Positions 1 through 20,183 of a stretch of 64,000 bases of DNA are shown here, one piece after another (position 1 is the stretch's first letter; each line of letters opens with the position of its first letter). A program made the position numbers and the translations under genes. The notes beneath the pieces were generated by a model that was given only the letters and a program-made list of their open reading frames with translations, was not told the DNA's origin and did no database searches. The stretch comes from a virus, in IMG/VR virus record IMGVR_UViG_3300009162_000001, one strand, 5' to 3'.

Positions 1-2552
1 CCACCGTTGTCACCCGACAACCTAAGCCAGCTGAGGAGATACTCCTTCGAGTCGAACGTCGAGTGTGCGTCATCCCCGTATTCGTTGTATGCGGAGATCG
101 TACCGTCGCCGTTCGACACGAGATCATGTCGGCTACCGTGTGTGTCGACGCCGGACAGGACGGTCGTACCATCCTTCGTGTTGCGCGCGTTCCAGACGTG
201 ATCGGCCAACTCCATGATGTGAAGGTTACCTGGGTTGGTGTCACGCCATCGACCGTGAGCGTCTCGTGGCTGATTGGGGTCAAAGTCAAAAGGGACGACA
301 TCACCGACCGCCGCCTCGGTCGGACGACCTGGGTGGCGACCCATGGTCGTTCCCGTGGCGAGCTGGTGGTAGTACTGACACAGGCCACCGGCGCGAACTC
401 CGACGTACTTACGCATGTGCTTGATGCAGCGTGTGCCATCGCCCTCGGTGTTCCACCGGATCTTAGCCGCACCAGGACCGTAGACCCAGTAGTCACGAAG
501 CTGATGACCAGCCGAGCCAGGTGACTTGACACCACGCTCCTTAGCCCAGGCGATGTACTCGTTTAGCCAGCCTTGGACGTCCGGATGATCAAGATCGAAA
601 ACCGACTCAAATTCGACCGTATAGCTACCAACGGCCGGCGTGCGTTCGGGCGCCTGGGGAGGTTCAGAGGTCTCAAGTTCAGACCTATCTGTACCAGTTT
701 GTCCAGCTCCAAGGGGGAAGTCATAGTTCTCGCCTGCGAAGGCCACGCGGATGCGATCAAATGTGATCGGACCGACCTGATCCACCAACGGAGTAAGATC
801 GGTAGCGGTCTCGGTCAACGTGATGTGCGGGATCCACGTCTTGAATGAGTGTGCCGACTGATCGATGACGTCGTGCACCTGCTCACAGATGAACTCGTAT
901 GACTCCGTCAGCTCATCACCCTGCACGAGCAGCACCGTGCACTCTTCACGATCCGGCTGAGCGTCACCTGGGTTAAAGAGTGCGAGCCCAAAACCTTCGG
1001 CGTCGATGACATCCAGCGCCGATGCGGCAGCCTCGATCCGACTAAGGATCTGCTCCTCGTTTTCCTCGGTGATGTCCGCGGCCTCGCCTAAGTACTTGAT
1101 CGTACAGTGAAGCTCGCCGGCTGGAAGACCACCATGCACAGCGAGACGACCCGCGTCATCCTCAGACGGGACCAATGCGATCATCGCACCGGTATGTACT
1201 ACAGCTGCAGCTGTAAGATCTTCAACGTTATTCATTACTTCTAACTCGATCACCGGAGTATCAGAGTTAGGCAGCTTACTGATGCCCAAGACACGCATGC
1301 GCTGATCCCGACCAAGAACTACCTCTTGCGCCTTGATGTAGTGATCATTAGCCTCGGGATCGTCAGTGTTCGTGGGGAACTTTACCGCGTGCGTCCCCGC
1401 TGGTACTGAAATCTTAAAGACCACAGCACCTGGTTTCGTCGCGTAGATCTGGGTCGCGACGTCACCATTGGCGCTTGTTGACGTGTATGCCTTGTCAGAT
1501 AAGACGTCGCCAACCTTGAGATTCTTATATTGATCTTGTACACCTTCAAGACCACGCCACACGGTAATCGGTTTAGTGACCGTTCCGCGTGCGACGACAT
1601 CGTCCAGTGCCGCAACCTGCGTCTCAGCGATCTGAGCATCTGACACGCGATCAAGTGCCGGTGGTCCGTTGCGTAGACGATCGTTTAACGCCTTGAAATT
1701 CATGCGATCTGGGTTGTAGCCGTTACCCGTGTAGGCGTTAAGTTCCTTGATATCGGTCGGTTCGAGTGGATGCGTGATCGCATCCAGCGCATCGGTACCG
1801 GTTAGACCTTCAGTCTTGGATAGAGCAGCCTCGTCGTGACCTACGATCTCCGGAGTGACGTCATCGATCGTGCTAGGCACGTCAGCCTCAGTCAACTGTG
1901 GACGAGCGTTCTGATGCGTCTCAGGAACGTTACCGATGAACGTACCGGCGCGTGGCTCGACTTCAGGTGTCTGCCAGTCACCCGTCTTGACCTTGTCGTA
2001 GGCCTGCTTCTTGGTGAGAGGCTTACCCTTTCCCCACGAGTCACCCTTACGCTTCTCGTGGAGAAACTTCTTGGTGGACTGATCCCATCGCATACGCTCG
2101 TTATCGCGCTGAGCGACGACCTCGCCGTCGGGAATCGTGGCACGGTGGATCGCCTTCGTCGGGGCGAACTTCTTCAACGCCTTCACGACACCGGAGATAC
2201 CACCACCTGGTGTCTCGGTCCATTGACCATCAGCATCGCGAAGTTCATGTTTCCACTGATCACCACCGGCTGCGGCCGTCATTGCCGCGGTGATCGAGCT
2301 CTCACCACTGAGGAACGCGTCCACCTCGGCGTCTGTGAAGCCACCGTCATCGAACTCCTCATGAGCGTTGGCCTCATCCTCCTGTGCCTGACGCTCCTCC
2401 GGAGTAAGGGTGTGCGAGATGTCGCGGAAGGGATCATCCAGCGGCAACTCATCGGTCATCAGGTAGTGCTGAGCCTCCGCGAGCGTCATACCACGAGGCA
2501 TCGCAGCGATCTCAGAGAGGTCGAACGTCTCATCAACGTGGAAGTTACTCAT
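1..2552 (-). CDS. multidomain virion-type protein (C-terminus beyond window): ADP-ribosyltransferase + 2H (LigT-like) phosphoesterase + actinophage head-protein motif
   Basis: Absent from the ORF track because there is no stop inside the window. Hand translation of the minus frame from ATG 2552 (ATGA overlap with the stop of the 2627-aa ORF) stays open to nt 1, about 850 codons. R-S-E ART signature: ITVWRG, AYTSTS, KAQEVVLG. Two HxT motifs about 90 aa apart: LHCTIKYLG and IPHITLTE. Then LRDYWVYGPGAAKIRWNTEGDGTRCIKHMRKY. Confidence 0.75.
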   Translation of the reverse strand, partial: MSNFHVDETFDLSEIAAMPRGMTLAEAQHYLMTDELPLDDPFRDISHTLTPEERQAQEDEANAHEEFDDGGFTDAEVDAFLSGESSITAAMTAAAGGDQWKHELRDADGQWTETPGGGISGVVKALKKFAPTKAIHRATIPDGEVVAQRDNERMRWDQSTKKFLHEKRKGDSWGKGKPLTKKQAYDKVKTGDWQTPEVEPRAGTFIGNVPETHQNARPQLTEADVPSTIDDVTPEIVGHDEAALSKTEGLTGTDALDAITHPLEPTDIKELNAYTGNGYNPDRMNFKALNDRLRNGPPALDRVSDAQIAETQVAALDDVVARGTVTKPITVWRGLEGVQDQYKNLKVGDVLSDKAYTSTSANGDVATQIYATKPGAVVFKISVPAGTHAVKFPTNTDDPEANDHYIKAQEVVLGRDQRMRVLGISKLPNSDTPVIELEVMNNVEDLTAAAVVHTGAMIALVPSEDDAGRLAVHGGLPAGELHCTIKYLGEAADITEENEEQILSRIEAAASALDVIDAEGFGLALFNPGDAQPDREECTVLLVQGDELTESYEFICEQVHDVIDQSAHSFKTWIPHITLTETATDLTPLVDQVGPITFDRIRVAFAGENYDFPLGAGQTGTDRSELETSEPPQAPERTPAVGSYTVEFESVFDLDHPDVQGWLNEYIAWAKERGVKSPGSAGHQLRDYWVYGPGAAKIRWNTEGDGTRCIKHMRKYVGVRAGGLCQYYHQLATGTTMGRHPGRPTEAAVGDVVPFDFDPNQPRDAHGRWRDTNPGNLHIMELADHVWNARNTKDGTTVLSGVDTHGSRHDLVSNGDGTISAYNEYGDDAHSTFDSKEYLLSWLRLSGDNG

Positions 2553-5500
2553 CGCCACATCATCCCTGCGTCGACAGCCGCAATGATCTGACTCTCGTCA
2601 TCCGGCTTAGGTACGATGCGAACACGAACCGTAGCACCACTACCGTTAGGTGTCACGCTAAGAATGTGGTAGTAGAGACCGGCGGCGAGCAGCATCTCAT
2701 TCTCGCCCTTGTGGAGTGAGATCGGCTTGGCCCAGTACATCGGCGTCCCAGGTGGCGCCTCGATCTCAATCTTGACGTGACCACCGAACGCCGAGTGCCC
2801 ACCGGTTGACGTCGAACCAAAGCCACCCATCCAGCGCGTCTGGCCGACCATCTTCGCCAGGCTAGCGTACGACGTAGCCTTGAACGCGTCGAAACCAACA
2901 CCACGGTGGAGCAACACCGGCTCGATCGAGGGGATCATCGCCGCCTGAGCGTTGTTCATACTTTGCTCATTCGAGCTGGAGATGCCCTGCACCTTGCCAT
3001 ACAGGAAGGCGTTGATGGAGTGGTAGATACCGCCGGTGTAGTTGGTAATGCCACTCTTAGCGGAGCCTGAAGGTTCCTGCCCGGTCGCCTTCTTAAAGGC
3101 CGCCAGCGCCTTGTTAAACCACGAGGTAGCCGAGCTGGTGTCCAAAACATTGTACGAATACTTGTTCGACTCCTCAAGCGTCGGTAGGTTACCCTCAACG
3201 CCTGCCATGAACTTCGGCGGCGGTGGCTTCGGGATCGGCAGGTTGTGCAGGATCGCGTAGCCGGCGGGTGTCTGCAGCCAGTCGGTGATCTTCTTCTCGA
3301 AGAGGTGATCGTCAGGCTTCGAGACCTTGGCAGCGCCGACCTCATCGATAACGCGCAGCGTCTGCATCTTCGTGAGGTTGTTGTTGTCCGCGATCGTGAT
3401 CAACGCGGCCCAGATGTCCTGGCTTGAGCTCTTGAGGTACGTCGCCGGCTGGGACTTGAACGCCTGGTAGACCTGCTTCTTCTGCGCATCACTTAGGTGG
3501 GAGATGTCCCCGCCACCCATGTCGATCGTCCCACCACCGGGCACCGTGACGACGCTCGCTGAGTGCGACGTCTTAACCGTTGGGACCGTAGCCTCCGGCT
3601 TGTACCAGCCGTAAACGGGTGCTGAGTTAGCGAGCGTCGCTACCTTGTACGACTCGGTATTCGTCGTCGTCCACGTGTTGTTGGCTGGGCTCCAGGTCTG
3701 AAGCTGGAACTCAGACCCAGGCTTGTGATAGACGATTCGATGTTGACCATTAGACGAGTACGCGAGAACGGTCGTCGCATTATACTGACTCTTCTTAGAG
3801 AGCGGACCCCACGCTGCGACCTTCGGACCCTTGGGTACGTCGGTTCCATCGGGAAGCGTGATCGTTCCGAAGATGCCGGTTGGCTTCGGTGGCGGCGGTG
3901 GCGGTGGCGGCGGTGGCGGCGCCGGAGGTGTCGTTGGATATTTCAACGCCACAGGTGCTGGCTTTGGTGGCTTAGGATGAGCCACCGGCGTCGTCGCGTC
4001 GTACCACTTCGTCTTCACAACCTTAGCCAGCGACGCCAACTTGTACTGCTCGCCGTCGACGTAGATCCACTTCTTGTTGGTGTCATCCCACTTGTGTAGG
4101 TAGAAGAACCCGTAGTTGGCCGACAGCCTGTACTTGCCATCTTCCGAGTACGCCAGAGGCTGGCCGCTGTTCTTCTTGGCGGCCAGGTCCTTCCACACCT
4201 TAACCTCGGGACCCTTGTCCACCGTCGTACCGTCGGCTAGTGTCAGCTTCGACTTCGGTGTTGATGAGGCAGCAGGCGCGATCTTTGTCGGACTTAGGTC
4301 AATCGCGTAGTTCCAATAGTCCGAGTGGTCTTGCGCCAGCTTCTTGGGATGGTCACCCTCGGCGAAGAGCTCGTACTTGTTCGTGGCCGGATTGTACTTG
4401 CGAAGCTGGTATCCACCGAAGTTGGAGACCAAGATAAGTTCTTTGCTAGGTGACACCGCGTGTAGCTTGTACCCGGCGTCTGGGTTGACGTCACCGATCG
4501 ACTCCCAGCCATCCATTGGGATCGTGTAACCGGTCGACACTGGTGTTCCGTCCTTGAGTGGGAACACGTTAGGTGTCGTGCTTAGTCCGGTGAACTTATC
4601 CGTGATCGGTGGCGGAGAGTTTGGTGACTGTTCCGCGTGAACCCAACTCTTGAAGAAACCCACCTTGTTAGTTGCTGTGAGGTACGGATCCTTACCCGAG
4701 CCAGCAAGTTCATACTTATGCTTGTCAGGATTCCACGTTGAGACAAAGAACCAACCATCGGTTGAAAACAGTTGGTGTTGAAGATCTGTCGTTACGGCGT
4801 GCAGCTTATGTCCAGGAACAACGCTCTTATCCTTAAGAATCTGCTGCCAGTCTTCAGGCTGAATATCCTCCGCAAGTAGGACCTCGGTGCCGTCCGGCAG
4901 TGTGTCGATCGGTGACGCGATCGACACGTCCTTAACCTCACCCTCGGTCGACACCGGTGCGAGTGTCCACTTCGTGTTCTTGCCGAGGACGTTGTTGTCC
5001 ATGAAGTTTGTGAGTTGTTCCTCGGTGGTGAACTCGTATGACGTAGGCACATCTGTGCCTTCATCATTGTGGTAGAACACCTGCAGCTTCTTAAAGCCTT
5101 CACCATCACCATCTTGCTTGATCTTATAGGTGAAGGTTCCACCTTCCTTGACGTACGTTCCGGTGGCAATGATCTTCGCGTACGTAGCCGAACCAAACGA
5201 TGGTGTCGCGTTCCAGACCTCGTCTGCGGTGGCATTACGTGAACCAACGGTCGGCGACAACGTCGGATCACTACCGCCCGGCGTACCCGCGTACCACTTA
5301 TCGGTCATGTTCCACGTGTCGACCGGGAAGTGATTTAGCAACGACGACTGTGGTTCCGCCGCGACGATCTCACTCGTCCAGTTCGGGCTGTCGGCGGTGC
5401 CGTCGTTGGTCTCGAGAACAAACTTGCTGTCATCGTCATACGTGACTCGCCACTTACCGTCCTCACGCGTCGCGACGACGTCACCGGGAACCCACGGCAA

Positions 5501-8500
5501 CTTTTCTAGATCCGCAAACGACGTGACCACCTGCGGTACATGCACACCAGGTGTTGGCGTCGGTGCTGGCTTAGCGCCAGACAGTGATGCGTAGACCGGA
5601 GCTCCGGTCGGCGTCGGGTATATCTTCCACGAGTCGCCGTTGTCGTCGTTCATCTTAAGGTAGGCGTCGACCTCGTGTGGCTCAACCTTGACGAGCGCCA
5701 CACCGTTCTTAAACACAAACATGTGTTCGCCAAGCTGACCCTTTTCAACGGTAAGAAGATCACCGTTCTCAAGATTCTTGTTGGCGATCACCGAGTAGCT
5801 CTTCACATCGGGATCGGCCAGGGCCTTCATGATCAGTGAGGTGCCGGGATGCTCGTCAGACGACGGCGGCATCACGGTCGGCTTCTTGACGTCAGGATGC
5901 GCGATGACGTAGTCGAGACCCTTCTTCGTCTTCAGCCACTTCTTAAGCTTGTTCGTGTACGAGCTGTTCGTCGGCGCGCTGGGCGGCAACCCAGTGTCCA
6001 GCGCCGCTAGGATCTGCATGTTCGTCAGGTGTTCGTAACCGACACCCGCATCTGAGGTCTTGAACGACTGCAGTGCATCCCAGATCGCCTCAGGCTTGTT
6101 GTGCCACTTCGCACCGTTGGCATTGAAGTACGTCTTAAGAACACCGATCTGCGCGGGCGACATGCTGGTGATGTCAGCACCTGGGTTCGGCGCAGGCTTC
6201 GGTGGATCGACGTTGACGAGATGCCACTTTGACGTACTTGTGTGATCTTGCGCCGTGAACGCTAAGTCATTTGCCGGGATGTTTGTCTCAAGGGTCATCC
6301 AGTCACTGGGGTTGTTCGTTGATTGCTTCTGGATGCGAAACTTCTTCATGTCTGCGTTAGGTAGTGATGTACCACCCGCAATGATGCGGAAGTTACCCTC
6401 AGGTGTCGTCACCGTCGCAATGACTTGGTTCTTGACGAACGTAGCCATAGACTCAAATGTGAACTTTTGCTTCCACGCTTCCGAGGTAAACGTTGTCTCG
6501 TTGTCACCACCGTAGGCACCGGTTGACACAGCACCGTCAATCGCCGCATTGTGCTGTGAGATGTTCGCCGGCACACCAAAGTGCGGAACGGCTACGTCAC
6601 CCTTAAGCCAACTCTTAACACTCTCGTTTGAGTGATACTTGGTGACATCAGCGAGATCATCTTCCCACTCGGCGTCAGACGCGCCTTCACCCGGTAGACC
6701 CAGCTTGCTGACCACCGTCCACTTACCGGTGCTGTTCTGAATCTTACTGAGCTCGATCTGACCGGTGCTGATGTTGTACGTCATCGCCAGGCTACCGTCT
6801 GTCGTCACTCCGATCGTCGTACCGGGTGCGTTAAACAGTCCGGCATCCACCATGTCGTCAACGCTCAGCTCATCCTCAGGCTCCCACCATGTATCTGAAC
6901 CGACATTACCGTCAAGATCTTGATTGAACAACGAGCTAGGATTCCACGCAATGTCAGCACCACCAGCTTTGTCGATCCACCACTGGTTAAACGCATCATT
7001 ATCATGAAACTGAACAGATGACTTACCATCACCGGTCTCTTCGTACAATGCAAGCGGATAGTCAAACGATGTCTTACGAATCGTAACCGGGTTACCATTC
7101 TTATCATTTCCAGCGATAAGAATATTACCCGGCTTTGCGGTCTTAGCTGCGTCAAGAACATTCGTGCCAAGTTCAGCGTGCTTGGTGTCGACCGGATACG
7201 CCATCTTGACGGCAGATGTTCCCAACTTAGCCTGACGCTGTGCGGTCGTCTTCTTGTAAAGATCGCTAAAGTCCTTTTCCAGCGTATCACGACGCTGCAT
7301 GATCGCCTTAAGGAACGTCTCAGGATCGTTACCGTAGGCGCTTAACCATCCGTTCTTGGCGGCACCCTGCGCGTACGAACCGAACATATCCCGGATGTCA
7401 TCGTCAGAGAGCTCGGTCGCGTCAAAGATAACCTGCGCGATCGCATGATCTTCATCCGGATCGTGCATCTGGATGTTCTCGCCGTTGGCATATGCCTTCC
7501 ACATGTCCGGGTACGTGTGCTTGTTTGGACTGAGTGGGCTCCACGGCTTGTAGTCCGGATCAAGCTTGTCCTTGGCGTAGAACCTGAAGGCGTGACCCTT
7601 GTCGATGGACGAGATGTGACCGTTTGGTAGTCTGATGAACTGACCGGAGTGTGCGTCGTTGTTGCCCAGGAGCCAGTCGAGGACTTGCTCCTTCTGCATG
7701 TCACGCACATCTTCTTCAGACAAGTTCGTCGGCTTAAACGAACCGTTCGGGAACGCGTCCTGGGCGTCGAACATCGCCTGCACGGCGGCCGGCTTGCCAT
7801 CGACGTCCATCACCCACGTCTTGGGACCCTTAAGCCCGATGGCTGCCTGCAGCTTGTTCGCCGCGACGTCGAGCTCAAGCACAGGATCATCGTTAGGGTT
7901 CTTCTTACGACGCACCAACCAGCGCTGACCCTTGTCATCGATGTAGATCGGCGACGCGGAGACTCCCGTGGCCGCGTTCCCGATCTTCTTCATCTTCGCG
8001 GGATCAGGCTTGTGTGCGTTCATCACCGCCACGATGGAACCCGGCACACCAGGCGGCGATGAATACGACTTAATGACAACCGGCGGTGAAACCGGTGGTG
8101 GAGCTGTTGACTTCGGTGCGGATGCAGGCTGACGCCAGTCCCACTTCGCGTCCTTCGCCATCTTATACGTGTCGGCCTTGGTGTCATACGAGACCGAGTA
8201 CCACGCATCAGTCACAGTGCTCTTCTGCTGCAGCTGGTACTTCTTCATCCCCGCACTCCAGCGGAGTCGATGAGTGCCATCAGCACTCACGGCGACGACC
8301 GTACCATCCTGGTGTTGCTTGTGAATGGTCGCAGGAATGAACTTCTTAGTTGACGGCGCAGATGATGTGACCTTCGCTGGCTCAACGTTTTCAAGAGGCG
8401 TTGGCACCGTACTTGGAATGGTAGGCACCGCGTTGGGTACGCCCGGTGGTGAATCCAGCTTCATGTTCTCCGGCACCGGCGTGGTAATGGTCGTGTCGGA

Positions 8501-10432
8501 GTCGGGACCCTTGTTCTCAAAGCCAGAGATCTTATGCTTAAGCGGCTCAGACATCGGCGACGAGCTGATGCCATGCGTCAGCTTGGAGATCCAGCCCTGC
8601 TGCTTATCCGTCAGGTTGTCCCAGGTCTCCTGGGAATCGATCGCGCCGACGGCATCCTTCAGCTGCGTGAATGTTGGGCTGTTCATCTTAAAGAAGTCAG
8701 CAAGTGGACCCTTACTGATGAACCGCCCGTCCTTGCCGCGCGGATGCTGCTCAGGCTGCCACTTACGGTGAACGCCACTCGCCGTCAGGGCCATGTCCAT
8801 GGCGAACTTGTACGACTGCGACTTAGGTGGCTTCGGCGGATCAGCCGGGATGATGTCATTGGTATCGGTCGTCGAGTCACCGGTGTCGAAGATGTCGAAG
8901 ATCTTCGGAATGCTGTCGGCCAGCGCCGGGTGGAAGTCACCATCACGCAACATTGTGGCGATCTGCTGCCTCGTCAGCCACAACGCGTTCATAACCTCGG
9001 CGTGATCGACCTCAGGCTCAAACTGACGTGGCGCCTCAGCGGCGATGTTCGTGTACTTCCACGGTTCAGGCTGACCCTCAATAGGCTGAACGGTTACGTG
9101 CGTACCCAGGTGCTTAACGTCATCCAGGTACTTCTGCGAGACGTGCAGTTCCTCATACGTCTCGCGAGCCGCACCCTGGGCCGGAGTCTCATACTGATCC
9201 ATCGCACCGCCGGGAAGCTGCCACTTCCCGGTGTTGGAGACGGCCTTACCACGCTGGATGAAGAGGAAGCTGTCTTCACCGTCCTCGTTTGGCGCCTTGA
9301 TCATGACACCCGAGGCGCCGTACGTTCCCCAGATGCGCCACTGCTGGTTCTTAACGAGGTACTTGTCGCCCGACTTACCACGCAGTGCCGCAGGTAGGAT
9401 CACGAACTTGTTGGGATCCTTGGCGATCTCGGCGATCTGCTCAGGTGTGCGACCACCGTACTTGCGCTCAATGCGAGCCTGCTCAGCCTTCTTCATGGCT
9501 GCAAGCTGCTCAGGTGTCGGTGGCGCCTTCTTCTGCTTAGGTACCTTAAAACCACCAAGCAGCTTTGAGATCTCGACGTCACTCAAGTCATCGATGAACT
9601 CACCACTATGAGGATCCCGCGGATGATCTTTAGGATCCCAGTTAGGCTTACCCTTTGCCCACGGGTATCCCGCGGACATCATGACGAGCTCTTCCTCATC
9701 ATCCGCGGTGACGTCAGGGAACAACTCGTATGTCACAGAGCAGCGACAGTTGATCGTCTCGTCCAGTGGTCCACGAGGATCTCCTGGGTACTGCATCTGT
9801 GAACGACCAACCGTGAACGGCTCGGAGATCTTTTGTGTCTGACCGTCAGCCTCATCATGTGTTGGCCGTGTGTGCGAGTCGTTGGTCGCCAGCCAAGACT
9901 TCTTGCCGTCGGGATCCACCATCGCAGCCTGAGCATATGAGCCAGCTTCTAGCGCAGCGTGGATCTCGGTACGTGCGATCGTCAGTGCCTTGGAGTCTGA
10001 GACGTTACCGACGTGCTTGATGCGCGCGGCGATCTGCTTGACGTCCTCATCTAGCGCGTAACCCTTGATGAGCTGCGTGTGGATCGCGTCCCAGACGTCC
10101 TGGCTTAGATCTTGAAACCGGTTGGCGGCCAGCTGCAGGTGTGTCTCCACGAAGTCTTCATTTAGGAGGAACGCCTTATCCCCCAAACCAAGGTCCTGAC
10201 GCACCCTCTCAGCACCGTCGAGTACCTGCATGCCCAGATATCCCAGCAAGGGTCCGTCCACCTGCTGAGCCCACAGGGAGGGCAGCTCATTGAGGTCTGA
10301 CATCGATACCCGCGTGGTCTGCTTACCGACCAGCGCGCGCATCACGGCACGCCACGCCTTCTGGATCAACGCAGCTAGTGTGTCAGCGCGCTCATCCTTC
10401 TCGTCGCGCGACCACCCCCGTGTGTCCGCCAC
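2549..10432 (-). CDS. giant 2627-aa MuF (SPP1 gp7)-like head-morphogenesis fusion protein: MuF + Nudix + kinase-like motif + repeated beta-rich modules + C-terminal ADP-ribosyltransferase
   Basis: Single uninterrupted ORF directly after the portal gene. MuF motif: ARTEIH...THDEADGQ...INCRCS. Nudix box: GGAMDQYETPAQGAARETYEEL. Kinase-like motif: NNDAHSGQF...SIDKGHAF. At least 10 repeats of about 70-95 aa, PPAPPPPPPPPPPPKP tract. ART signature: YTGGIYHSIN, LLHRGVG, GFGSTSTG, ENEMLL (ExE). Confidence 0.9.
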   Translation of the reverse strand: MADTRGWSRDEKDERADTLAALIQKAWRAVMRALVGKQTTRVSMSDLNELPSLWAQQVDGPLLGYLGMQVLDGAERVRQDLGLGDKAFLLNEDFVETHLQLAANRFQDLSQDVWDAIHTQLIKGYALDEDVKQIAARIKHVGNVSDSKALTIARTEIHAALEAGSYAQAAMVDPDGKKSWLATNDSHTRPTHDEADGQTQKISEPFTVGRSQMQYPGDPRGPLDETINCRCSVTYELFPDVTADDEEELVMMSAGYPWAKGKPNWDPKDHPRDPHSGEFIDDLSDVEISKLLGGFKVPKQKKAPPTPEQLAAMKKAEQARIERKYGGRTPEQIAEIAKDPNKFVILPAALRGKSGDKYLVKNQQWRIWGTYGASGVMIKAPNEDGEDSFLFIQRGKAVSNTGKWQLPGGAMDQYETPAQGAARETYEELHVSQKYLDDVKHLGTHVTVQPIEGQPEPWKYTNIAAEAPRQFEPEVDHAEVMNALWLTRQQIATMLRDGDFHPALADSIPKIFDIFDTGDSTTDTNDIIPADPPKPPKSQSYKFAMDMALTASGVHRKWQPEQHPRGKDGRFISKGPLADFFKMNSPTFTQLKDAVGAIDSQETWDNLTDKQQGWISKLTHGISSSPMSEPLKHKISGFENKGPDSDTTITTPVPENMKLDSPPGVPNAVPTIPSTVPTPLENVEPAKVTSSAPSTKKFIPATIHKQHQDGTVVAVSADGTHRLRWSAGMKKYQLQQKSTVTDAWYSVSYDTKADTYKMAKDAKWDWRQPASAPKSTAPPPVSPPVVIKSYSSPPGVPGSIVAVMNAHKPDPAKMKKIGNAATGVSASPIYIDDKGQRWLVRRKKNPNDDPVLELDVAANKLQAAIGLKGPKTWVMDVDGKPAAVQAMFDAQDAFPNGSFKPTNLSEEDVRDMQKEQVLDWLLGNNDAHSGQFIRLPNGHISSIDKGHAFRFYAKDKLDPDYKPWSPLSPNKHTYPDMWKAYANGENIQMHDPDEDHAIAQVIFDATELSDDDIRDMFGSYAQGAAKNGWLSAYGNDPETFLKAIMQRRDTLEKDFSDLYKKTTAQRQAKLGTSAVKMAYPVDTKHAELGTNVLDAAKTAKPGNILIAGNDKNGNPVTIRKTSFDYPLALYEETGDGKSSVQFHDNDAFNQWWIDKAGGADIAWNPSSLFNQDLDGNVGSDTWWEPEDELSVDDMVDAGLFNAPGTTIGVTTDGSLAMTYNISTGQIELSKIQNSTGKWTVVSKLGLPGEGASDAEWEDDLADVTKYHSNESVKSWLKGDVAVPHFGVPANISQHNAAIDGAVSTGAYGGDNETTFTSEAWKQKFTFESMATFVKNQVIATVTTPEGNFRIIAGGTSLPNADMKKFRIQKQSTNNPSDWMTLETNIPANDLAFTAQDHTSTSKWHLVNVDPPKPAPNPGADITSMSPAQIGVLKTYFNANGAKWHNKPEAIWDALQSFKTSDAGVGYEHLTNMQILAALDTGLPPSAPTNSSYTNKLKKWLKTKKGLDYVIAHPDVKKPTVMPPSSDEHPGTSLIMKALADPDVKSYSVIANKNLENGDLLTVEKGQLGEHMFVFKNGVALVKVEPHEVDAYLKMNDDNGDSWKIYPTPTGAPVYASLSGAKPAPTPTPGVHVPQVVTSFADLEKLPWVPGDVVATREDGKWRVTYDDDSKFVLETNDGTADSPNWTSEIVAAEPQSSLLNHFPVDTWNMTDKWYAGTPGGSDPTLSPTVGSRNATADEVWNATPSFGSATYAKIIATGTYVKEGGTFTYKIKQDGDGEGFKKLQVFYHNDEGTDVPTSYEFTTEEQLTNFMDNNVLGKNTKWTLAPVSTEGEVKDVSIASPIDTLPDGTEVLLAEDIQPEDWQQILKDKSVVPGHKLHAVTTDLQHQLFSTDGWFFVSTWNPDKHKYELAGSGKDPYLTATNKVGFFKSWVHAEQSPNSPPPITDKFTGLSTTPNVFPLKDGTPVSTGYTIPMDGWESIGDVNPDAGYKLHAVSPSKELILVSNFGGYQLRKYNPATNKYELFAEGDHPKKLAQDHSDYWNYAIDLSPTKIAPAASSTPKSKLTLADGTTVDKGPEVKVWKDLAAKKNSGQPLAYSEDGKYRLSANYGFFYLHKWDDTNKKWIYVDGEQYKLASLAKVVKTKWYDATTPVAHPKPPKPAPVALKYPTTPPAPPPPPPPPPPPKPTGIFGTITLPDGTDVPKGPKVAAWGPLSKKSQYNATTVLAYSSNGQHRIVYHKPGSEFQLQTWSPANNTWTTTNTESYKVATLANSAPVYGWYKPEATVPTVKTSHSASVVTVPGGGTIDMGGGDISHLSDAQKKQVYQAFKSQPATYLKSSSQDIWAALITIADNNNLTKMQTLRVIDEVGAAKVSKPDDHLFEKKITDWLQTPAGYAILHNLPIPKPPPPKFMAGVEGNLPTLEESNKYSYNVLDTSSATSWFNKALAAFKKATGQEPSGSAKSGITNYTGGIYHSINAFLYGKVQGISSSNEQSMNNAQAAMIPSIEPVLLHRGVGFDAFKATSYASLAKMVGQTRWMGGFGSTSTGGHSAFGGHVKIEIEAPPGTPMYWAKPISLHKGENEMLLAAGLYYHILSVTPNGSGATVRVRIVPKPDDESQIIAAVDAGMMWR

Positions 10433-10438: not shown

Positions 10439-12127
10439 TCACCCCCGGGTGCGCTGGGTCACGTCGATACTGATCTGCTTGTCGCGTGTCCCGGGTGCGT
10501 CACCGGCTCGCGTCAGCTGCCTTACCTGACCATCTGCGATCTTTTGCGTCGCAGGTTGACCGGCCGTCGACGCTGAACCTTGACCCGGGCCGCTGGGTTT
10601 CGGTCCACCGACGACGGCCGGCGCCTGCTGTCCCGGAAGACCAGGCATACCCGGCAGCGCAGGCTGCGGGATCTCCATCTTGTCCCCGGTGAGCTCTTCA
10701 TATGCGGGTCCGGCAAGCTGCCCGCCCTGACGCACCAGACCACGCTGGAGCATCTTCTTCTCTTCCTTGGAGGACGGCTTGTCAGCCTCGGTAAATCCGG
10801 TCTCTCGACGAGTCGCGGCGTCCGAGATGATGATACGGTCGTTGAGCTGAAGCGCCAGATCAGATCGGTCAGGCCGCTGTGTCAGCTGCGTGGTGTCGTA
10901 CCATACCACGATGCGGTTGCCGTCCTTGGTGACCATCGACTCGCCGGCGGATTTCATCATCGGCGCAAGGTAACCAACGGTCAGACCACGCGTGACGATC
11001 TCGACCTTCGGTGCGATATGGATCTTGATCGCCGACTCCTCAAGCGTCGCCGACGACCAGTAGTTCGTGTTGCCAAGACCGGTCAACACCTCCTGTGGCA
11101 GGTTCAGTGACGCGGCCAGCCGGCGAAGCGCACCCTCACGGGCCTCAAAGATCTTGTCGTCCAGCGGCGTCGCGAACGTCATGTGCCTGAACTTCTCGAT
11201 CAGGTCGGCGGGAACGCGAAGCGGAAGTGGCGCGGCGGACGCAGGACTGCCCGGGTTCTTGATGACCGCACGCATGACGTCGAGCAGCTCAGCGAAGAAC
11301 GGATCCTGCTGCTCGGCGTATGCCGGGTTGACCGGCAGGGTCACCTCATCGGGAATTAGCCAGACGCCGTTGAGCGCGACGCGTGAGATCAGCGTCGCCA
11401 TGATGTAGCGGTTGTACATGTCGATCTCGCGCATGGTCGCCAGTGCGGCGCGCGCCGGTGACGATGCCTTCCACGGCATACGCTCGTCGCGGTCCCAGAT
11501 GCGAACGATCAACGTCTCCTTGGGCAGTGGGATCCACAGGCCCTCCTCGACCTGCAACTCCCAGCCACGCTGCTCCATGCCGAGGATGTTCTTGAACGTG
11601 CGCTGTGACTTCTTAATCGAGGTCTTAGGCTGCACCGTCCAAACTGTGCCGGTCTCATCGGGCTCCGCGTCGAGGATGACGCCAGCGTACGCCTCAACGG
11701 GCATGTCCATGTCGTTGGTGTTGAAGCCAACGAGGTAACCCTCACCCGGAACGGAGAGCTGAACCGCCAACGACTTAAGCATGGCGGACTGACCGGCGAT
11801 GCCGCCGGCGAGCTGTTCAATGATCTCAACGGCTGGACCAGACGTGATCGGCTGTGGTTCGTCGCCACCCGGCGCCATCTCAGCCACGTTGAGACGACAG
11901 CGACTCAGCGCCTCAGCGAACCACGTGACACCGTAGTTGAACTCGCCGAGACCCTCGTAGAACGACCAACCTTCATCCTGCCAGCCATCGTACACCAGCG
12001 GTCGAAGCAGCATCAGGTCACGGGGGCTGGATATCATCTGCACCGCGGCGGTCAGCGGCGGTAGGTCAGCGTGCTGCCCGTTACGAAGCGTTGTCCCCCG
12101 TGACGCACGCCGAAGGTCAGATGCCAT
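10439..12127 (-). CDS. portal protein
   Basis: 562 aa, positioned between terminase and the MuF gene. The N-terminal region (WQDEGWSFYEGLGEFNYGVTWFAEALSRCRL) is typical of SPP1/HK97-type portals. Pro/Gly-rich C-terminal tail. Confidence 0.8.
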   Translation of the reverse strand: MASDLRRASRGTTLRNGQHADLPPLTAAVQMISSPRDLMLLRPLVYDGWQDEGWSFYEGLGEFNYGVTWFAEALSRCRLNVAEMAPGGDEPQPITSGPAVEIIEQLAGGIAGQSAMLKSLAVQLSVPGEGYLVGFNTNDMDMPVEAYAGVILDAEPDETGTVWTVQPKTSIKKSQRTFKNILGMEQRGWELQVEEGLWIPLPKETLIVRIWDRDERMPWKASSPARAALATMREIDMYNRYIMATLISRVALNGVWLIPDEVTLPVNPAYAEQQDPFFAELLDVMRAVIKNPGSPASAAPLPLRVPADLIEKFRHMTFATPLDDKIFEAREGALRRLAASLNLPQEVLTGLGNTNYWSSATLEESAIKIHIAPKVEIVTRGLTVGYLAPMMKSAGESMVTKDGNRIVVWYDTTQLTQRPDRSDLALQLNDRIIISDAATRRETGFTEADKPSSKEEKKMLQRGLVRQGGQLAGPAYEELTGDKMEIPQPALPGMPGLPGQQAPAVVGGPKPSGPGQGSASTAGQPATQKIADGQVRQLTRAGDAPGTRDKQISIDVTQRTRG

Positions 12128-12131: not shown

Positions 12132-12512
12132 CTACTCCACCTTCTGTGCGAACCAGCCGGTGAACGCCGTTGCGGCGACTCCGTAGAGAACGGTGATCCA
12201 GATGCCTGCGAACCAGTCGGTCGTGTAGTACAAGATCCACATAGTCAGGGTGGCGACCCAAACCGAGGCGCACCAGTCACAGGTGATGAGGTACGCCAAG
12301 CTGCCGCCGAACGCGCCTAAGTGATTGCGACCTAGACCGCCGTGCTTCTTGATGTAACGCTCCCGGGCATCCTCATCGGCGTACTCAGGATGTAGGTATA
12401 GGACGATCGTCTCACGGGGCCACGCGACCAGTGGCATTGTGTCCGTGGTTACAAGCCGTGTCACCCGGTATACGAATAGACACAGCAGCACCAGTAGCAA
12501 CCAGGGATTCAC
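12132..12512 (-). CDS. membrane protein, DUF1360-like
   Basis: 126 aa with several TM helices. N-terminal LFVYRVTRLVTTDTMP resembles the DUF1360 signature. Confidence 0.55.
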   Translation of the reverse strand: MNPWLLLVLLCLFVYRVTRLVTTDTMPLVAWPRETIVLYLHPEYADEDARERYIKKHGGLGRNHLGAFGGSLAYLITCDWCASVWVATLTMWILYYTTDWFAGIWITVLYGVAATAFTGWFAQKVE

Positions 12513-13895: not shown

Positions 13896-14333
13896 TTAAG
13901 ATTTTTTATGCTTTTCGAGATATATGATCGCTTGCTTAAGTATCTCTACGTCGTGTAACAGTGATCCAATACCTAAATTACATCGAGAGCACAGCCATCC
14001 ACGTAGTGTCTTCGTGATCTCATCATGATCAACATGTATTCGACCTTTAACATGCTTACCACATATTTCGCATATACCCGTGTATGTCACAAAAAACTTA
14101 TCTAGTTCATCATCTGTGATTCCTGGAATCTTTTTCCTAAGCATGTGTACACGTGAATATGTAGCTATAGGATGTACGTCTGTCCTTCCACGTCTTGCGT
14201 TATATTCTTTGTAATACGCAGAAGAACACAACTTACAATATCTAGATAATGGCATTTTTGATACACGATCAAGATAAAAGTCACTAAGTGGTTTTGTCTG
14301 CTTACATTTACTGCAGTGAGCTTCATCGGTCAT
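13896..14333 (-). CDS. HNH / endonuclease VII-family homing endonuclease
   Basis: 145 aa. Motif CEICGKHVKGRIHVDHDEITKTLRGWLCSRCNLGIG plus an N-terminal Cys4 cluster. The gene is conspicuously AT-rich relative to its flanks. Confidence 0.8.
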   Translation of the reverse strand: MTDEAHCSKCKQTKPLSDFYLDRVSKMPLSRYCKLCSSAYYKEYNARRGRTDVHPIATYSRVHMLRKKIPGITDDELDKFFVTYTGICEICGKHVKGRIHVDHDEITKTLRGWLCSRCNLGIGSLLHDVEILKQAIIYLEKHKKS

Positions 14334-15504: not shown

Positions 15505-15595
15505 AAATGACAGATGAGCGCCACCCGCGGATAGGAGTACGCAGGGTGACGCTCATCGTTTCTCCAGCCGACCAATCCATGTACTCGCCGGAGAG

Positions 15596-15668
15596 AGCCA
15601 CGTGAAGGTATCGAACCCTCGACATTCCGCTTACAAGGCGGACACTCTACCAACTGAGTTAACGTGGC
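15596..15668 (-). tRNA. tRNA-Thr (TGT)
   Basis: Hand fold. Acceptor GCCACGT/ACGTGGC, D-loop AGTTGGTA, anticodon loop CT-TGT-AA, T-arm GAGGG-TTCGATA-CCTTC. Confidence 0.88.
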
Positions 15669-15773
15669 GTGGCACGATGGCGTTTCTCCAAGCGCCACCG
15701 TGCTTTGTGCAAAACAGCACCAACAGCATGTCCGTGGCTAGTGGACATGGAACCAAGACGTTGTCTTGACCCG

Positions 15774-15844
15774 CTGGGAGTGGAGGACTCGAACCTCCAC
15801 AGCGGGAACCAAAATCCCGCGTCCTGCCATTAGACGAACTCCCA
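15774..15844 (-). tRNA. tRNA-Gln (TTG)
   Basis: Acceptor TGGGAGT/ACTCCCA, anticodon loop TT-TTG-GT, T-arm GGAGG-TTCGAGT-CCTCC. Confidence 0.85.
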
Positions 15845-15849
15845 ATGCT

Positions 15850-15926
15850 GTAGGCGACCCCGTACTCAGACGGAACCTTTTAGGAGTTGGTTAGACTCCC
15901 TCTATCCGGTAACCAGCCGGACCTAC
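15850..15926 (-). ncRNA. non-canonical tRNA-sized structured spacer (possible pseudo-tRNA)
   Basis: 77 nt. Complementary ends GTAGGT./.GCCTAC. Internal 5-bp stem with 7-nt loop CTAACCA. No canonical T-loop. Confidence 0.3.
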
Positions 15927-15930
15927 CTCG

Positions 15931-16002
15931 GGTGACTGAAGAGGATCGAACTCTCGTATCTGGGACCACAACCCAGCGCTCTACCATTGAGCTACAATCA
16001 CC
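15931..16002 (-). tRNA. tRNA-His (GTG)
   Basis: Encoded G-1 opposite C73. Acceptor GTGATTG/CAGTCAC, anticodon loop TT-GTG-GT, T-arm GAGAG-TTCGATC-CTCTT. Confidence 0.88.
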
Positions 16003-16003
16003 G

Positions 16004-16074
16004 TACGCCGTGAAGGTATCGAACCTTCGTCCCCCGGGTAAAAGCCGGGTGCTAAGCCACTCAGCTAACGGCGC
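16004..16074 (-). tRNA. tRNA-Lys (TTT)
   Basis: Acceptor GCGCCGT/ACGGCGT, anticodon loop CT-TTT-AC, T-arm GAAGG-TTCGATA-CCTTC. 1 nt from tRNA-His. Confidence 0.88.
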
Positions 16075-16079
16075 TTAAG

Positions 16080-16164
16080 GAGGCGCAGGTCTGACTCTCG
16101 CTTGGATAGTAAGCTGTCATGATCAGCCTTCGAAGCCATGTTCACAAAACTTCGTTAACGCCTC
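16080..16164 (-). ncRNA. structured spacer with closing stem (non-tRNA)
   Basis: About 85 nt bounded by GAGGCG/CGCCTC. No cloverleaf found. Confidence 0.25.
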
Positions 16165-16167
16165 ACG

Positions 16168-16248
16168 CGGAAGGTGAGGGACTCGAACCCCCAACCGTTG
16201 CCGGCTCTGGTTTTCAAAACCAGTTCCCACGCCAATGGGAGACCTTCC
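16168..16248 (-). tRNA. tRNA-Ser (TGA)
   Basis: Acceptor GGAAGGT/ACCTTCC, anticodon loop TT-TGA-AA, long variable arm, T-arm GGGGG-TTCGAGT-CCCTC. Confidence 0.85.
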
Positions 16249-16250
16249 GT

Positions 16251-16324
16251 GTAGTGATATTTCGGTGGACGGTATCGCAACCCACACTGTCCGTTTATGC
16301 GACCGGGTAAATCCAGCTCACTAC
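16251..16324 (-). ncRNA. tRNA-sized structured spacer (degenerate tRNA?)
   Basis: 74 nt bounded by GTAGTGA/TCACTAC. T-loop-like GGTTGCGATACC, but no canonical arms. Confidence 0.3.
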
Positions 16325-16333
16325 GACTGGCCG

Positions 16334-16414
16334 TATGCTCGGAGGGACTTGAACCCTCACACCCGTAGGTACCAGATCCTAAGTCTGGCGCGTCTGCCGT
16401 TCCGCCACGAGCAC
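16334..16414 (-). tRNA. tRNA-Leu (TAG)
   Basis: Acceptor GTGCTCG/CGAGCAT, anticodon loop CT-TAG-GA, long variable arm, T-arm GAGGG-TTCAAGT-CCCTC. Confidence 0.85.
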
Positions 16415-16419
16415 GTGTG

Positions 16420-16523
16420 TAAGAGCGCAGGAGTCGACTAAGGTGTAGAAAGGCGATGACACCCGTCATGACCGACCCTTGGCGTAATGCGAGATGGCTA
16501 TAGTTTCCGCTTTAACGCTCTTA
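16420..16523 (-). ncRNA. structured spacer with 8-bp closing stem (non-tRNA)
   Basis: 104 nt bounded by TAAGAGCG/CGCTCTTA, with internal hairpins. Fills the whole gap between tRNA-Leu and tRNA-Ile. Confidence 0.3.
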
Positions 16524-16525
16524 CG

Positions 16526-16600
16526 TGTCCTTCACAGGATTTGAACCTGCAACCTCGGCGTTATCAGCGCCGTGCTCCTACCAGTTCGAGCTCGAAGGAC
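16526..16600 (-). tRNA. tRNA-Ile (GAT)
   Basis: Acceptor GTCCTTC/GAAGGAC, D-arm GCTC-GAACTGGTAG-GAGC, anticodon loop CT-GAT-AA, T-arm GCAGG-TTCAAAT-CCTGT. Confidence 0.88.
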
Positions 16601-16650
16601 TTGGAGCCGGGGTGGGCAGGCATGGCGTCCTGACCAACCCCACCCCGACG

Positions 16651-16723
16651 TATCCCCAGCAGGATTTGAACCTGCGACCTCTTGATTCGTAGTCAAGCGC
16701 GCTATCCACTGCGCCATGAGGAT
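16651..16723 (-). tRNA. tRNA-Arg (ACG)
   Basis: Acceptor ATCCTCA/TGGGGAT, anticodon loop CT-ACG-AA, T-arm GCAGG-TTCAAAT-CCTGC. Confidence 0.88.
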
Positions 16724-16726
16724 ATG

Positions 16727-16824
16727 CTGTGAAGGCAACAACCCGGATGTTCGGCGCTACCGAGTGGTACGGGCTTAAGCCTCCTTGGGAGCTACCCAAG
16801 GATCAGACCTGTGTACCTTCACAG
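16727..16824 (-). ncRNA. structured spacer with 9-bp closing stem (non-tRNA)
   Basis: 98 nt bounded by CTGTGAAGG/CCTTCACAG. Internal 7-bp hairpin CCTTGGG/CCCAAGG. Confidence 0.3.
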
Positions 16825-16861
16825 TGTTAACGTGGAGGATCTGCAGATCCATCACGTCACG

Positions 16862-16932
16862 TAGAGTTATGGGGAATCGAACCCCAACCCGGTGGCTGAG
16901 AACCACCTGTGCTGCCATTGCACCATAACTCC
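16862..16932 (-). tRNA. tRNA-Glu (CTC)
   Basis: Acceptor GGAGTTA/TAACTCT, anticodon loop TT-CTC-AG, T-arm TGGGG-TTCGATT-CCCCA. Confidence 0.85.
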
Positions 16933-16935
16933 ATT

Positions 16936-17091
16936 ATAACGAGTGACAACCAGCCGTGGCGTTAACGGATTGGGGTCCGCAATACCATCTCAGCCCGGTG
17001 TTTCTGCATCGTAAGGCCCCAACCCGACGACCGATACTCCCGTATACCCAAGGCCCCGCGTGGAGCCCGGGTACAGCCACCAACTCGTTAT
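16936..17091 (-). ncRNA. 156-nt structured spacer with 9-bp closing stem
   Basis: Bounded by ATAACGAGT/ACTCGTTAT, GC-rich internal helices, no ORF. Confidence 0.3.
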
Positions 17092-17165
17092 TGGAAGGTC
17101 ATCCTCACGCCACCACGCGTCCTACCCTAAAGTGGGCGGAATCACGTTACCTCCCGAGGTGGCTC

Positions 17166-17243
17166 TGGCGTCCCATGCCGGACTCGAACCGGCGATCTTC
17201 GGATTGACGATCCGACGTCCACTCCATGCTGGACCGATAGGAC
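17166..17243 (-). tRNA. tRNA-Asp (GTC), CCA encoded
   Basis: Acceptor GTCCTAT/ATGGGAC, anticodon loop TC-GTC-AA, T-arm GCCGG-TTCGAGT-CCGGC, then G-CCA. Confidence 0.88.
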
Positions 17244-17247
17244 AACG

Positions 17248-17320
17248 TACGCTGTGAAGGACTTGAACCCTCAACACCCTGGGTGTAGGCCAGGTGCTCT
17301 TCCAGTTGAGCTAACAGCGT
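17248..17320 (-). tRNA. tRNA-Val (TAC)
   Basis: Acceptor ACGCTGT/ACAGCGT, D-arm GCTC-AACTGGAA-GAGC, anticodon loop CC-TAC-AC, T-arm GAGGG-TTCAAGT-CCTTC. Confidence 0.88.
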
Positions 17321-17362
17321 ATGAAACGAATGTAGTTGTCAAGTAACCGTTTCGTAAGGTTT

Positions 17363-17374
17363 ACTTTATCACAC
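17363..17374 (-). promoter_or_regulatory. conserved extended -10 promoter (GTGTGATAAAGT) upstream of the tRNA array
   Basis: Plus strand reads actttatcacac. Followed on the minus strand by the GACAACTACA box (17331-17340) and tRNA-Val. Confidence 0.5.
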
Positions 17375-17494
17375 TTTGTGTGATCGTGCAACTACTTATC
17401 TCAAGATTTTTTCTTCTAACGTAAAGGGCGCAGCATGGGCTACGCCCCTCACTCTCAACCTGTACTGTGCTGTGTATATTGTATCACGTTTATG

Positions 17495-17579
17495 TGCTCC
17501 GAGAGGGAGTCGAACCCTCACGCAAGTTTCCTCGCAGCAGATTTTAAGTCTGCGGTGTCTCCCATTCCACCACCGGAGC
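17495..17579 (-). tRNA. tRNA-Leu (TAA)
   Basis: Acceptor GCTCCGG/TCGGAGC, anticodon loop CT-TAA-AA, long variable arm, T-arm GAGGG-TTCGACT-CCCTC. Confidence 0.85.
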
Positions 17580-17663
17580 TGGACGACGAACTAGATCATA
17601 CTGATAGTAACGAGTGCTCTTACCTTTATTCTTTCCACGATACGATCCCCCGTGAACTTCAGC

Positions 17664-18143: not shown

Positions 18144-18147
18144 GAGA

Positions 18148-18600: not shown

Positions 18601-18617
18601 CTATAATGTTTAAGCGA

Positions 18618-19037: not shown

Positions 19038-19067
19038 ACGTCACTCCCATCACTTCGGTCTTTTTCG

Positions 19068-20154: not shown

Positions 20155-20183
20155 GCGCTGACAGTTTCCACTAATGTTGATCG

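Follow-up and report, generated by a model that had tools for sequence, protein, structure and literature searches.

The locus described here raises the question of what kind of protein a phage encodes when a gene product of 2627 amino acids (aa), with several unrelated enzyme-like domains, follows directly upon its portal protein. The gene lies in a 64,000-nucleotide stretch of the IMG/VR virus record IMGVR_UViG_3300009162_000001, and this whole stretch constitutes the window of the analysis. An original prediction made from the sequence alone had described the product as an exceptionally large effector anchored by a MuF head-morphogenesis domain and bearing a Nudix box, a kinase-like motif, repeats and a C-terminal ADP-ribosyltransferase (ART), in the layout of a MuF polymorphic toxin. 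We consider that the giant MuF protein is probably a virion-packaged, injected 'polyvalent' effector, a reading that draws on the integrity of the gene, the identities and folds of the domains, the gene order and the shuffling of modules among relatives.

The gene (2549..10432, minus strand; Table 1) is a single unbroken open reading frame (ORF) in the ORF listing, with a GTG start and a TGA stop, and encodes a protein of approximately 285 kDa. Its GTG is situated 6 nt past the portal stop codon and is directly preceded by GGGGGTGA. A frameshift or assembly artefact as the source of so long an ORF was considered and rejected, since a 104-kb contig (P0198) encodes an identical 2627-aa protein, whilst an 82.7-kb JGI contig (P0001) and an 84.8-kb ENA contig (P0196) encode variants that differ by one residue, these being three independent metagenomic contigs. 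The predicted ORF is therefore intact, and its size is exceptional only in relative terms, as 44 relatives, almost all metagenomic, span 1450-3011 aa and proteins bearing the kinase-like domain reach 6354 aa. When the gene was compared by megablast with 50,697 phage records, no match was obtained, there being no close sequenced relative, and a tblastn search with the protein against phage records never covered more than 13% of it in any record. Only two of the 2627 residues are cysteines, both within the INCRCS motif of the MuF domain, and the protein is rich in proline, threonine, lysine and aspartate.

The Nudix box, the DxHxxQ...IDKG motif and the R-S-ExE signature were all found where they had been predicted, and the MuF, Nudix and ART domains each exceeded the Pfam gathering threshold. 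The MuF domain matched PF04233 (Phage_Mu_F) over aa 117-233 with 57.3 bits (cut-off 29.6; E 3.2e-15) and phrog_2468 (E 8e-35), such that membership of Phage_Mu_F is indicated both by a score above the curated threshold and by a position adjoining the portal gene. The Nudix domain matched PF00293 over aa 382-495 with 46.6 bits (cut-off 21.1; E 4.3e-12). Its Nudix box (GX5EX7REUXEEXGU, aa 409-431, DNA 9140-9208) retains the catalytic REx2EE residues R423, E424, E427 and E428, and departs from the consensus at two non-catalytic positions, where U is replaced by T (T425) and G by H (H430). The C-terminal ART matched PF03496 (ADPrib_exo_Tox) over aa 2436-2597 with 41.3 bits (cut-off 23.4; E 1.4e-10) as well as phrog_3895; it is of the C3/VIP2/Alt R-S-E type with complete motifs (R2510, S2540-T-S2542 and E2577-N-E2579), and the nearest solved structure is that of Listeria Lmo0066 (PDB 8za7, E 4e-6), a protein on which a literature search found nothing relevant.

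The closest solved relative of the Nudix domain is mycobacterial RenU (PDB 6uuf), which was matched over aa 354-511 (E 1.7e-15) and aligned end to end, including the N-terminal GD-W...WG..GA.G extension of RenU. RenU hydrolyses ADP-ribose, FAD and NADH, whereas NAD+ is not a substrate (PMC4401782), and this kinship supports, though does not prove, a specificity for ADP-ribose- or NADH-type molecules in the phage domain. The earlier idea of a toolkit directed at nicotinamide adenine dinucleotide (NAD) and ADP-ribose is thereby strengthened without being proved. In the PknG-L13-RenU system (PMC4401782), RenU is a free-standing 17-kDa host enzyme, whereas the phage Nudix is an embedded domain; the presence of a kinase both in that system and in the giant MuF protein may be a coincidence.

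The kinase-like region had been flagged as the weakest of the calls. Its motif, DAHSGQ...IDKG, occupies aa 926-946 (DNA ~7595-7657), and Pfam matches were limited to the catalytic loop, with HipA_C (PF07804; E 0.056, 13.5 bits, cut-off 30.5) and PI3_PI4_kinase (PF00454; E 0.14, 12.5 bits, cut-off 27.1) both falling short of their gathering scores. Profiles of 6 and 22 homologues searched against PDB sequences retrieved almost exclusively kinase-fold proteins at the same motif (Fam20B with E 0.005, HipA with E ~0.1, ABC1/UbiB and HipT); judged by sequence alone, the assignment is marginal. It was settled by comparison of folds, which was decisive where sequence had stayed marginal. An AlphaFold2 (AF2) model of aa 795-1082, built on a 22-sequence alignment, had a predicted local distance difference test score (pLDDT) of 93.5 and a predicted template modelling score (pTM) of 0.90. 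All 50 of the 50 best Foldseek matches of this model in the PDB were protein-kinase-like folds (prob 0.93-1.00, E 2e-5 to 8e-4), amongst them CtkA (E 1.8e-5), VPS34, PI4KA, PI3K-gamma, HipA, HipT and MAP2K7, with template modelling (TM) scores of ~0.3-0.4. In a viral structure library the best match was gp16 of Mycobacterium phage Onyinye (TM 0.78), followed by phage proteins labelled 'PI3K/PI4K catalytic domain' in UniProt, and in some of the matches the domain was joined to a portal, Nudix, ART or 2H domain. The model thus confirms a bilobal protein-kinase-like fold, and the kinase-like call holds at that level.

Relative to the atypical kinases of the HipA/CtkA/PI3K-PI4K type, the phage domain shares the bilobal fold, a D-x-H-x-x-N/Q catalytic loop (D926-A-H928-S-G-Q931) and a DFG equivalent (the 'IDKG' at D944-K945-G), but is sub-threshold in Pfam, reaches a TM of ~0.4 at most and forms a separate family. 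The family invariants D919, W920, D926, H928, D944, K945 and R1047 are all retained, with D926 and D944 conserved in 99-100% of 180 family domains; Q931 stands in place of the metal-binding Asn, a substitution common across the family. A further difference concerns the ATP-anchoring lysine at the end of strand beta-3, present in 98% of the family and kept by the closest relatives (P0002-P0004), which is absent from this protein: at the end of the predicted strand beta-3, RWLVRR, it is replaced by R841 (window 7928-7942, aa 831-835...841). In canonical kinases, replacement of the beta-3 lysine by arginine is inactivating. The catalytic competence of this copy is doubtful because of R841, and it may be inactive, non-canonical or a pseudokinase.

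Between these enzyme domains lie repeats, which had also been predicted and proved real both in self-comparison and with a family hidden Markov model (HMM). At least six copies of a ~60-aa beta-repeat were detected (HMM i-E values of 8e-5 to 5e-21), and its consensus, ..KINTKVIYKTKYADG.VVAE....RLVW....KKF.LQ....G.W..., occurs 117 times in 45 family proteins. The last two copies are parted by a poly-Pro linker; a run of 11 prolines was observed inside the Pro-rich stretch PTTPPAPPPPPPPPPPPKP, ahead of the last copy. An AF2 model of the first copy (pLDDT 86.6) predicts a beta-meander followed by a helix, for which a PDB fold search gave nothing significant, the best matches being single WD40/propeller blades (E 0.09). 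Searches of aa 510-690, 1080-1420 and 1510-2290 with Pfam, NCBIfam and PHROGs returned nothing except a chance-level match to DUF5780. The ART is preceded by a helical 'pre-ART' module, and a family HMM built from aa 2290-2400 also matched an internal copy of this module.

The relatives of the giant MuF protein are assembled from the same parts. An N-terminal MuF domain and a terminal ART are present in 36 of the 44, and all but one of these also have the pre-ART module ahead of the ART. Between the two ends, the composition of these MuF-bearing proteins is variable, with or without Nudix, with a kinase of type 1 or type 2 in up to three copies, with up to three internal ARTs and with differing numbers of beta-repeats. 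In P0037, a Nudix-kinase-ART cassette is located behind a WXG100 domain, a context of polymorphic toxins of the type VII secretion system (T7SS). The gene order is also maintained in another phylum, as a Syntrophus buswellii prophage (L034, NZ_CP175563.1, 137052-149756) displays the order large terminase (TerL), portal, MuF plus kinase, its MuF protein of 1527 aa containing the same kinase-like domain. Mycobacteriophage McProf has the order TerL-portal-gp54, in which gp54, a protein of 1185 aa annotated as a fusion of minor capsid protein and ART, carries an N-terminal VG15 domain, the same kinase-like domain (37% identity) and a C-terminal ART.

Approximately 40% of the giant MuF protein consists of beta-repeat and helical modules, which would suit a mainly structural protein, acting as an internal head component, ejection conduit or spacer, whose enzyme-like domains are decayed relics; the beta-3 lysine-to-arginine replacement and the two deviant positions of the Nudix box agree with such decay. 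This is nonetheless very unlikely, given that the Nudix REx2EE and the ART R, S-T-S and ExE motifs are all intact, that the other kinase invariants are kept, and that the domains persist under shuffling in dozens of relatives.

For an effector packaged in the virion, the following course can be proposed. Through its MuF end the protein (~285 kDa) would attach either to the portal or to the inside of the procapsid, as suggested by the biology of SPP1 gp7 and Mu F, and a few copies would be carried in the head, would exit via the portal and tail together with the DNA on infection, and would place the enzyme modules in the host cytoplasm ahead of any phage gene expression. MuF proteins of the SPP1 gp7 kind are head components that associate with the portal in one or two copies and leave together with the DNA (PMC5576092, PMC5512222), and proteins in which MuF is joined to ART, Nudix and 2H domains have been read as head-packaged injected effectors (PMC5512222, PMC9503650, PMC3482391, PMC5576092). 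Iyer et al. (2022) proposed that head-packaged ART, Nudix and 2H domains modify host macromolecules, and also that they destroy immune signals derived from NAD or ADP-ribose or composed of oligonucleotides (PMC9503650). In the host, the C-terminal ART would carry out NAD+-dependent ADP-ribosylation of one or more host proteins in the manner of T4 Alt, whilst the RenU-like Nudix would hydrolyse ADP-ribose- or NADH-type dinucleotides and so clear ADP-ribose-derived defence signals or toxic by-products. The kinase-like domain would phosphorylate, bind or regulate a target, and could be non-catalytic in this copy because of the replaced beta-3 lysine. The beta-repeats and helical modules would serve as spacers or adaptors, with target binding also conceivable for the beta-repeat, and the protein encoded by the next gene would contribute a further ART and a 2H esterase, probably along with another kinase of the PI3K/PI4K type.

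Several points weigh against an injected effector. Its packaging and ejection we infer from the MuF domain and the portal linkage, and its processing is putative; a protein of 2627 aa would need to unfold to pass through the portal channel; and the downstream protein, for its part, lacks a MuF domain by which it could be packaged. The glycine-to-histidine change in the Nudix box and, as judged by conservation within the family, R841 count on the same side.

As to the class of protein, the closest parallel is offered by the polyvalent proteins (Iyer 2017, PMC5512222), which likewise combine several unrelated effector domains in one giant polypeptide encoded among head genes and have shuffled architectures, with MuF and ART forming network hubs of that catalogue. 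In agreement with this, the giant MuF protein unites at least two catalytic domains in one polypeptide, the architectures of the 45 family proteins are shuffled, and a variant phage (described below) encodes an ART-PolyVal domain (PF18760) in the neighbouring gene. The kinase of the polyvalent proteins belongs, however, to a truncated Ser/Thr-kinase clade from phages of Verrucomicrobia and Bacteroidetes, whereas a full bilobal HipA/CtkA/PI3K-like domain is present here; the ART differs in being of the R-S-E (Alt/VIP2-like) type, and the beta-repeat and pre-ART modules are absent from that catalogue.

The original assignment to the MuF polymorphic toxins stands as regards the layout, in which an N-terminal MuF domain is followed by an extension of at least 100 aa ending in an ART, a toxin domain common to other polymorphic-toxin families. 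The MuF toxins of Jamet et al. (2017; PMC5576092), such as the EFV toxin of E. faecalis V583, also share the PF04233 N-terminus, the portal-adjacent position and the hypothesis of delivery with DNA. In the strict sense of those authors, the protein would be an inter-bacterial weapon of a temperate phage, with a C-terminal toxin that is lethal to cells lacking immunity and against which lysogens are guarded by a cognate immunity protein, and the cassette found behind the WXG100/T7SS domain in P0037, as well as the cassette swaps between closely related phages, would accord with this. The Jamet toxins, though, have one toxin domain, are found in temperate phages only and as a rule have a small immunity ORF behind them, whilst the giant MuF protein has three enzyme modules. 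A small immunity ORF directly downstream was looked for and is absent, the next gene encoding at least 850 aa and overlapping the giant gene by an ATGA. The 64-kb window further holds a lytic-type gene set with 16 tRNA genes and, among its 24 ORFs scanned, no integrase, with 19-40 kb of the contig lying outside, and MuF-ART fusions occur in strictly lytic phages (PMC7302621). We therefore regard a weapon of the Jamet type as quite unlikely. With no immunity ORF behind the gene and a gene set of lytic appearance, the product is best read as a 'polyvalent protein', a label that fits better than MuF toxin.

Comparable proteins are found in actinobacteriophages, where MuF-VIP2 fusions are encoded by Microbacterium phages Percival (gp4) and Goodman, which are lytic (PMC7302621), and by Mycobacterium phages McProf (gp54) and Onyinye (gp16). 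These share with the giant MuF protein the actinophage setting, the C-terminal ADPrib_exo_Tox domain and, mostly, the position among head genes, although that of Onyinye gp16 differs in being just upstream of the terminase gene. McProf gp54 and Onyinye gp16 also contain the same kinase-like domain (33-40% identity), which is unannotated in their records. The fusions are, however, two- to five-fold smaller and lack the Nudix and most repeats, and the N-terminus of McProf gp54 is of the VG15 type. T4 Alt similarly possesses an R-S-E ART, is packaged in the head, is co-injected with the DNA and modifies host RNA polymerase and other proteins (PMC5512222), but it is a single-domain protein with a capsid-targeting sequence instead of MuF and without Nudix or kinase modules. 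Effectors built as MuF fusions and packaged in the head are already known, as are polyvalent proteins; what is new is the recurring combination of MuF, kinase and ART, together with the RenU-like Nudix and the repeat modules. The window provides a clean, independently re-assembled three-enzyme MuF protein in a lytic-type, actinophage-like genome, beside a second multi-enzyme protein.

The kinase-like domain belongs to a family that was enumerated by an exhaustive HMM search, as a word-indexed protein search with the kinase segment had given one match only. At E <= 1e-3 the HMM search recovered 1786 representative clusters, of which 553 remained at E <= 1e-30; the family therefore comprises at least 1786 clusters at 50% identity, and yet has no Pfam model. 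Its range extends from phages and prophages of Actinomycetota to those of Desulfobacterota, haloarchaeal tailed viruses and T7SS toxins, and most of its domains are located in proteins of 1000-6000 aa; some metagenome-assembled genomes were observed to harbour three to four separate loci with the domain. Amongst the 147 best representatives, for which domain counts from local HMMs are lower bounds, the commonest architecture was MuF-Kin-ART (46), 32 were Kin-ART, 52 had a MuF domain and 87 (59%) an ART. A second type of kinase is present in P0005, P0036 and P0037, of which the P0036 copy reaches Pfam HipA_2 at 26.5 bits, and the two types are homologous according to an hhalign comparison of disjoint sets (97.9% probability, E 3.5e-13). 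A full-text literature search found no description of a HipA/PI3K-like kinase in MuF-ART proteins, nor do the papers defining the polyvalent and MuF-toxin classes mention one. The structural evidence places a widespread, unannotated domain among the atypical kinase folds, and this domain is closely tied to MuF and ARTs across bacterial phyla.

That MuF-Kin-ART is the commonest architecture and that 59% of representatives have an ART make a partnership of kinase and ART plausible, and we put forward, as a tentative and rather doubtful proposal, that the domain represents a large undescribed family of atypical kinases or pseudokinases, delivered by the virion and acting in partnership with ARTs. 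The kinase fold could act on the ART in cis, gating or activating it in the way that SidJ acts on SidE, or could instead prime the ART target. The RenU-like Nudix, for its part, could shorten ADP-ribosyl marks to phosphoribosyl and so block their removal by host hydrolases. If this is true, kinase, ART and Nudix would together form an injected multi-step protein-modification machine, and a functional kinase-ART coupling would offer a testable handle on the role of phage-injected ARTs in Actinobacteria.

A short linker motif, HPRxxxGxF, was identified in two copies in the giant MuF protein, HPRDPHSGEF and HPRGKDGRF, and also at aa 761-769 of the downstream gene product. Across the family it is placed after the MuF domain and at module borders, and matches to the pattern [HKQ][PK]R-x(2-5)-G-x(0-1)-[FW] number 48 in the 45 family proteins, where shuffled sequences would be expected to give 1.5; the motif may mark sites of processing or docking. 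Possible processing sites at module boundaries would suit a late-expressed polyprotein that acts in the producing cell, for example by removing NAD, ADP-ribose or cyclic-nucleotide signals of abortive infection, and whose MuF domain is cleaved by the prohead protease. Homologues of the downstream protein indeed have ClpP-type prohead proteases as fusion partners (P0212 with PF00574; phrog_18402). Cleavage is, however, only predicted, late timing fits poorly with counter-defence needed early in infection, and the linkage of the modules to MuF and portal across phyla favours physical delivery, all of which renders the polyprotein unlikely.

The gene that overlaps the end of the giant gene runs off the window start, and its product carries the two domains that had been predicted for it, a second ART and a putative 2H-type esterase, together with a beta-repeat and a phrog_6439 module. 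The 2H-type domain matched phrog_2659 (E 1e-35) and phrog_755 (E 2e-5), both annotated as 'RNA ligase', and has HCT and HIT motifs. Homologues of this part carry PF13563 and PF02834, and in other phages it is joined to a ClpP-type protease or, in Streptomyces 'phage minor head proteins', to MuF. Matches to CNPase in the PDB were weak (E >= 0.15), and the 2H Pfam score was 17.5 bits, below the cut-off of 27, on P0201, a protein that is 94% identical here. The RenU-like Nudix and the putative 2H esterase are together candidates for acting against NAD/ADP-ribose- and cyclic-nucleotide-based defences at DNA entry.

P0201 is encoded by a variant phage (a 7825-bp JGI contig with 90-94% identity in shared segments), in which the downstream region is composed of two genes. 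The first product, P0203, contains a different ART, a beta-repeat and the ART-PolyVal domain, so that swapping of cassettes is seen between closely related phages. The second, P0201, corresponds to aa 445-850 of the downstream protein and continues into a canonical GDRHEYN...IDHG PI3K/PI4K-like domain (PF00454 E 7e-5, Kin1 HMM E 3e-6). Since P0201 possesses such a domain, the downstream protein probably also ends in a second kinase-like domain just outside the window, as judged from this alignment.

Table 1. Features of the giant MuF gene, the downstream gene and the remainder of the window
Feature	Residues (aa)	Window position	Strand	Evidence or remark
Giant MuF gene	1-2627	2549..10432	-	ORF listing
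MuF / SPP1 gp7-like head-morphogenesis domain	98-238	9719..10141	-	Pfam PF04233, phrog_2468
HPRDPHSGEF linker motif	270-279	9596..9625	-	motif scan
RenU-like Nudix hydrolase domain	351-505	8918..9382	-	PF00293, PDB 6uuf
HPRGKDGRF, second linker-motif copy	563-571	8720-8746	-	motif scan
Beta-repeat copy 1	689-747	8192..8368	-	self-comparison, family HMM
Atypical protein-kinase-like domain	795-1080	7193..8050	-	AF2 model and Foldseek
Beta-repeat	1201-1241 (or 1194-1241)	6710-6832 (aa 1201-1241)	-	family HMM
Beta-repeat	1333-1379	6296-6436	-	family HMM
Helical pre-ART module, internal copy	1418-1508	5909..6181	-	family HMM
Beta-repeat	1646-1679 (or 1635-1687)	5396-5497 (aa 1646-1679)	-	family HMM
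Degenerate beta-repeats	~1845-1909 and ~1959-2022			self-comparison
Beta-repeat	2067-2125	4058-4234	-	family HMM
Beta-repeat	2195-2256	3665-3850	-	family HMM
Helical pre-ART module directly upstream of ART	2307-2394	3251..3514	-	family HMM
C-terminal R-S-ExE ART	2427-2609	2606..3154	-	PF03496, phrog_3895, PDB 8za7
Downstream gene, runs off window start	at least 850	3..2552	-	ATG at 2552; 4-nt ATGA overlap with giant MuF gene
Beta-repeat of downstream gene	~125-195
ART of downstream gene	259-427	1272-1778	-	ADPrib_exo_Tox E 4.5e-10
Putative 2H phosphoesterase-type domain of downstream gene	~445-615	708-1220	-	phrog_2659, phrog_755, HCT/HIT
phrog_6439 module of downstream gene	676-742
Portal protein gene		10439..12127	-	phrog_776 E 1e-107; immediately upstream of giant MuF gene
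DUF1360 membrane-type protein		12132-12512	-	PF07098 E 2e-7, phrog_781
Endonuclease VII/HNH-like gene		13896-14333	-	phrog_2633 E 5e-30
16 tRNA genes		15595-26723	-
Large terminase (TerL)		20897-22432
RNA-binding (Ro-like) protein	length 538	23860-25476	-	phrog_850 E 2e-44
RNA ligase		28968-29675	-	phrog_548 E 2e-18
Two distinct thymidylate-synthase-family genes and a thymidylate-kinase-like gene		35237-35944, 55398-56255, 54359-55285	-, +, +	phrog_85 E 5e-74 and phrog_5131 E 2e-41 (thymidylate synthase family)

Besides the two thymidylate synthases and the RNA ligase of Table 1, the remainder of the window encodes a DNA polymerase, a primase, a helicase and an exonuclease, and the phage looks lytic by its gene set. 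The portal protein shares at most 34% identity with its relatives, and most of the 877 records matched belong to actinophages, the single best being a Pseudanabaena cyanophage; the closest genomic matches of the kinase-like domain are in Actinomycetota. Taken with the relatives of the portal and MuF proteins, these sequence matches suggest that the host is probably an actinobacterium.

The tRNA cluster runs from the portal side past TerL, the gap between TerL and portal consisting of ~9 kb of tRNAs and small ORFs. Beside the cluster, the RNA-binding protein and the RNA ligase, with the 2H domain, look like a tRNA/RNA-repair set. The two thymidylate-synthase-family genes hint at an unusual or modified pyrimidine metabolism. 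The DUF1360 membrane-type protein is encoded directly upstream of the portal gene, with the endonuclease VII/HNH-like gene further on.

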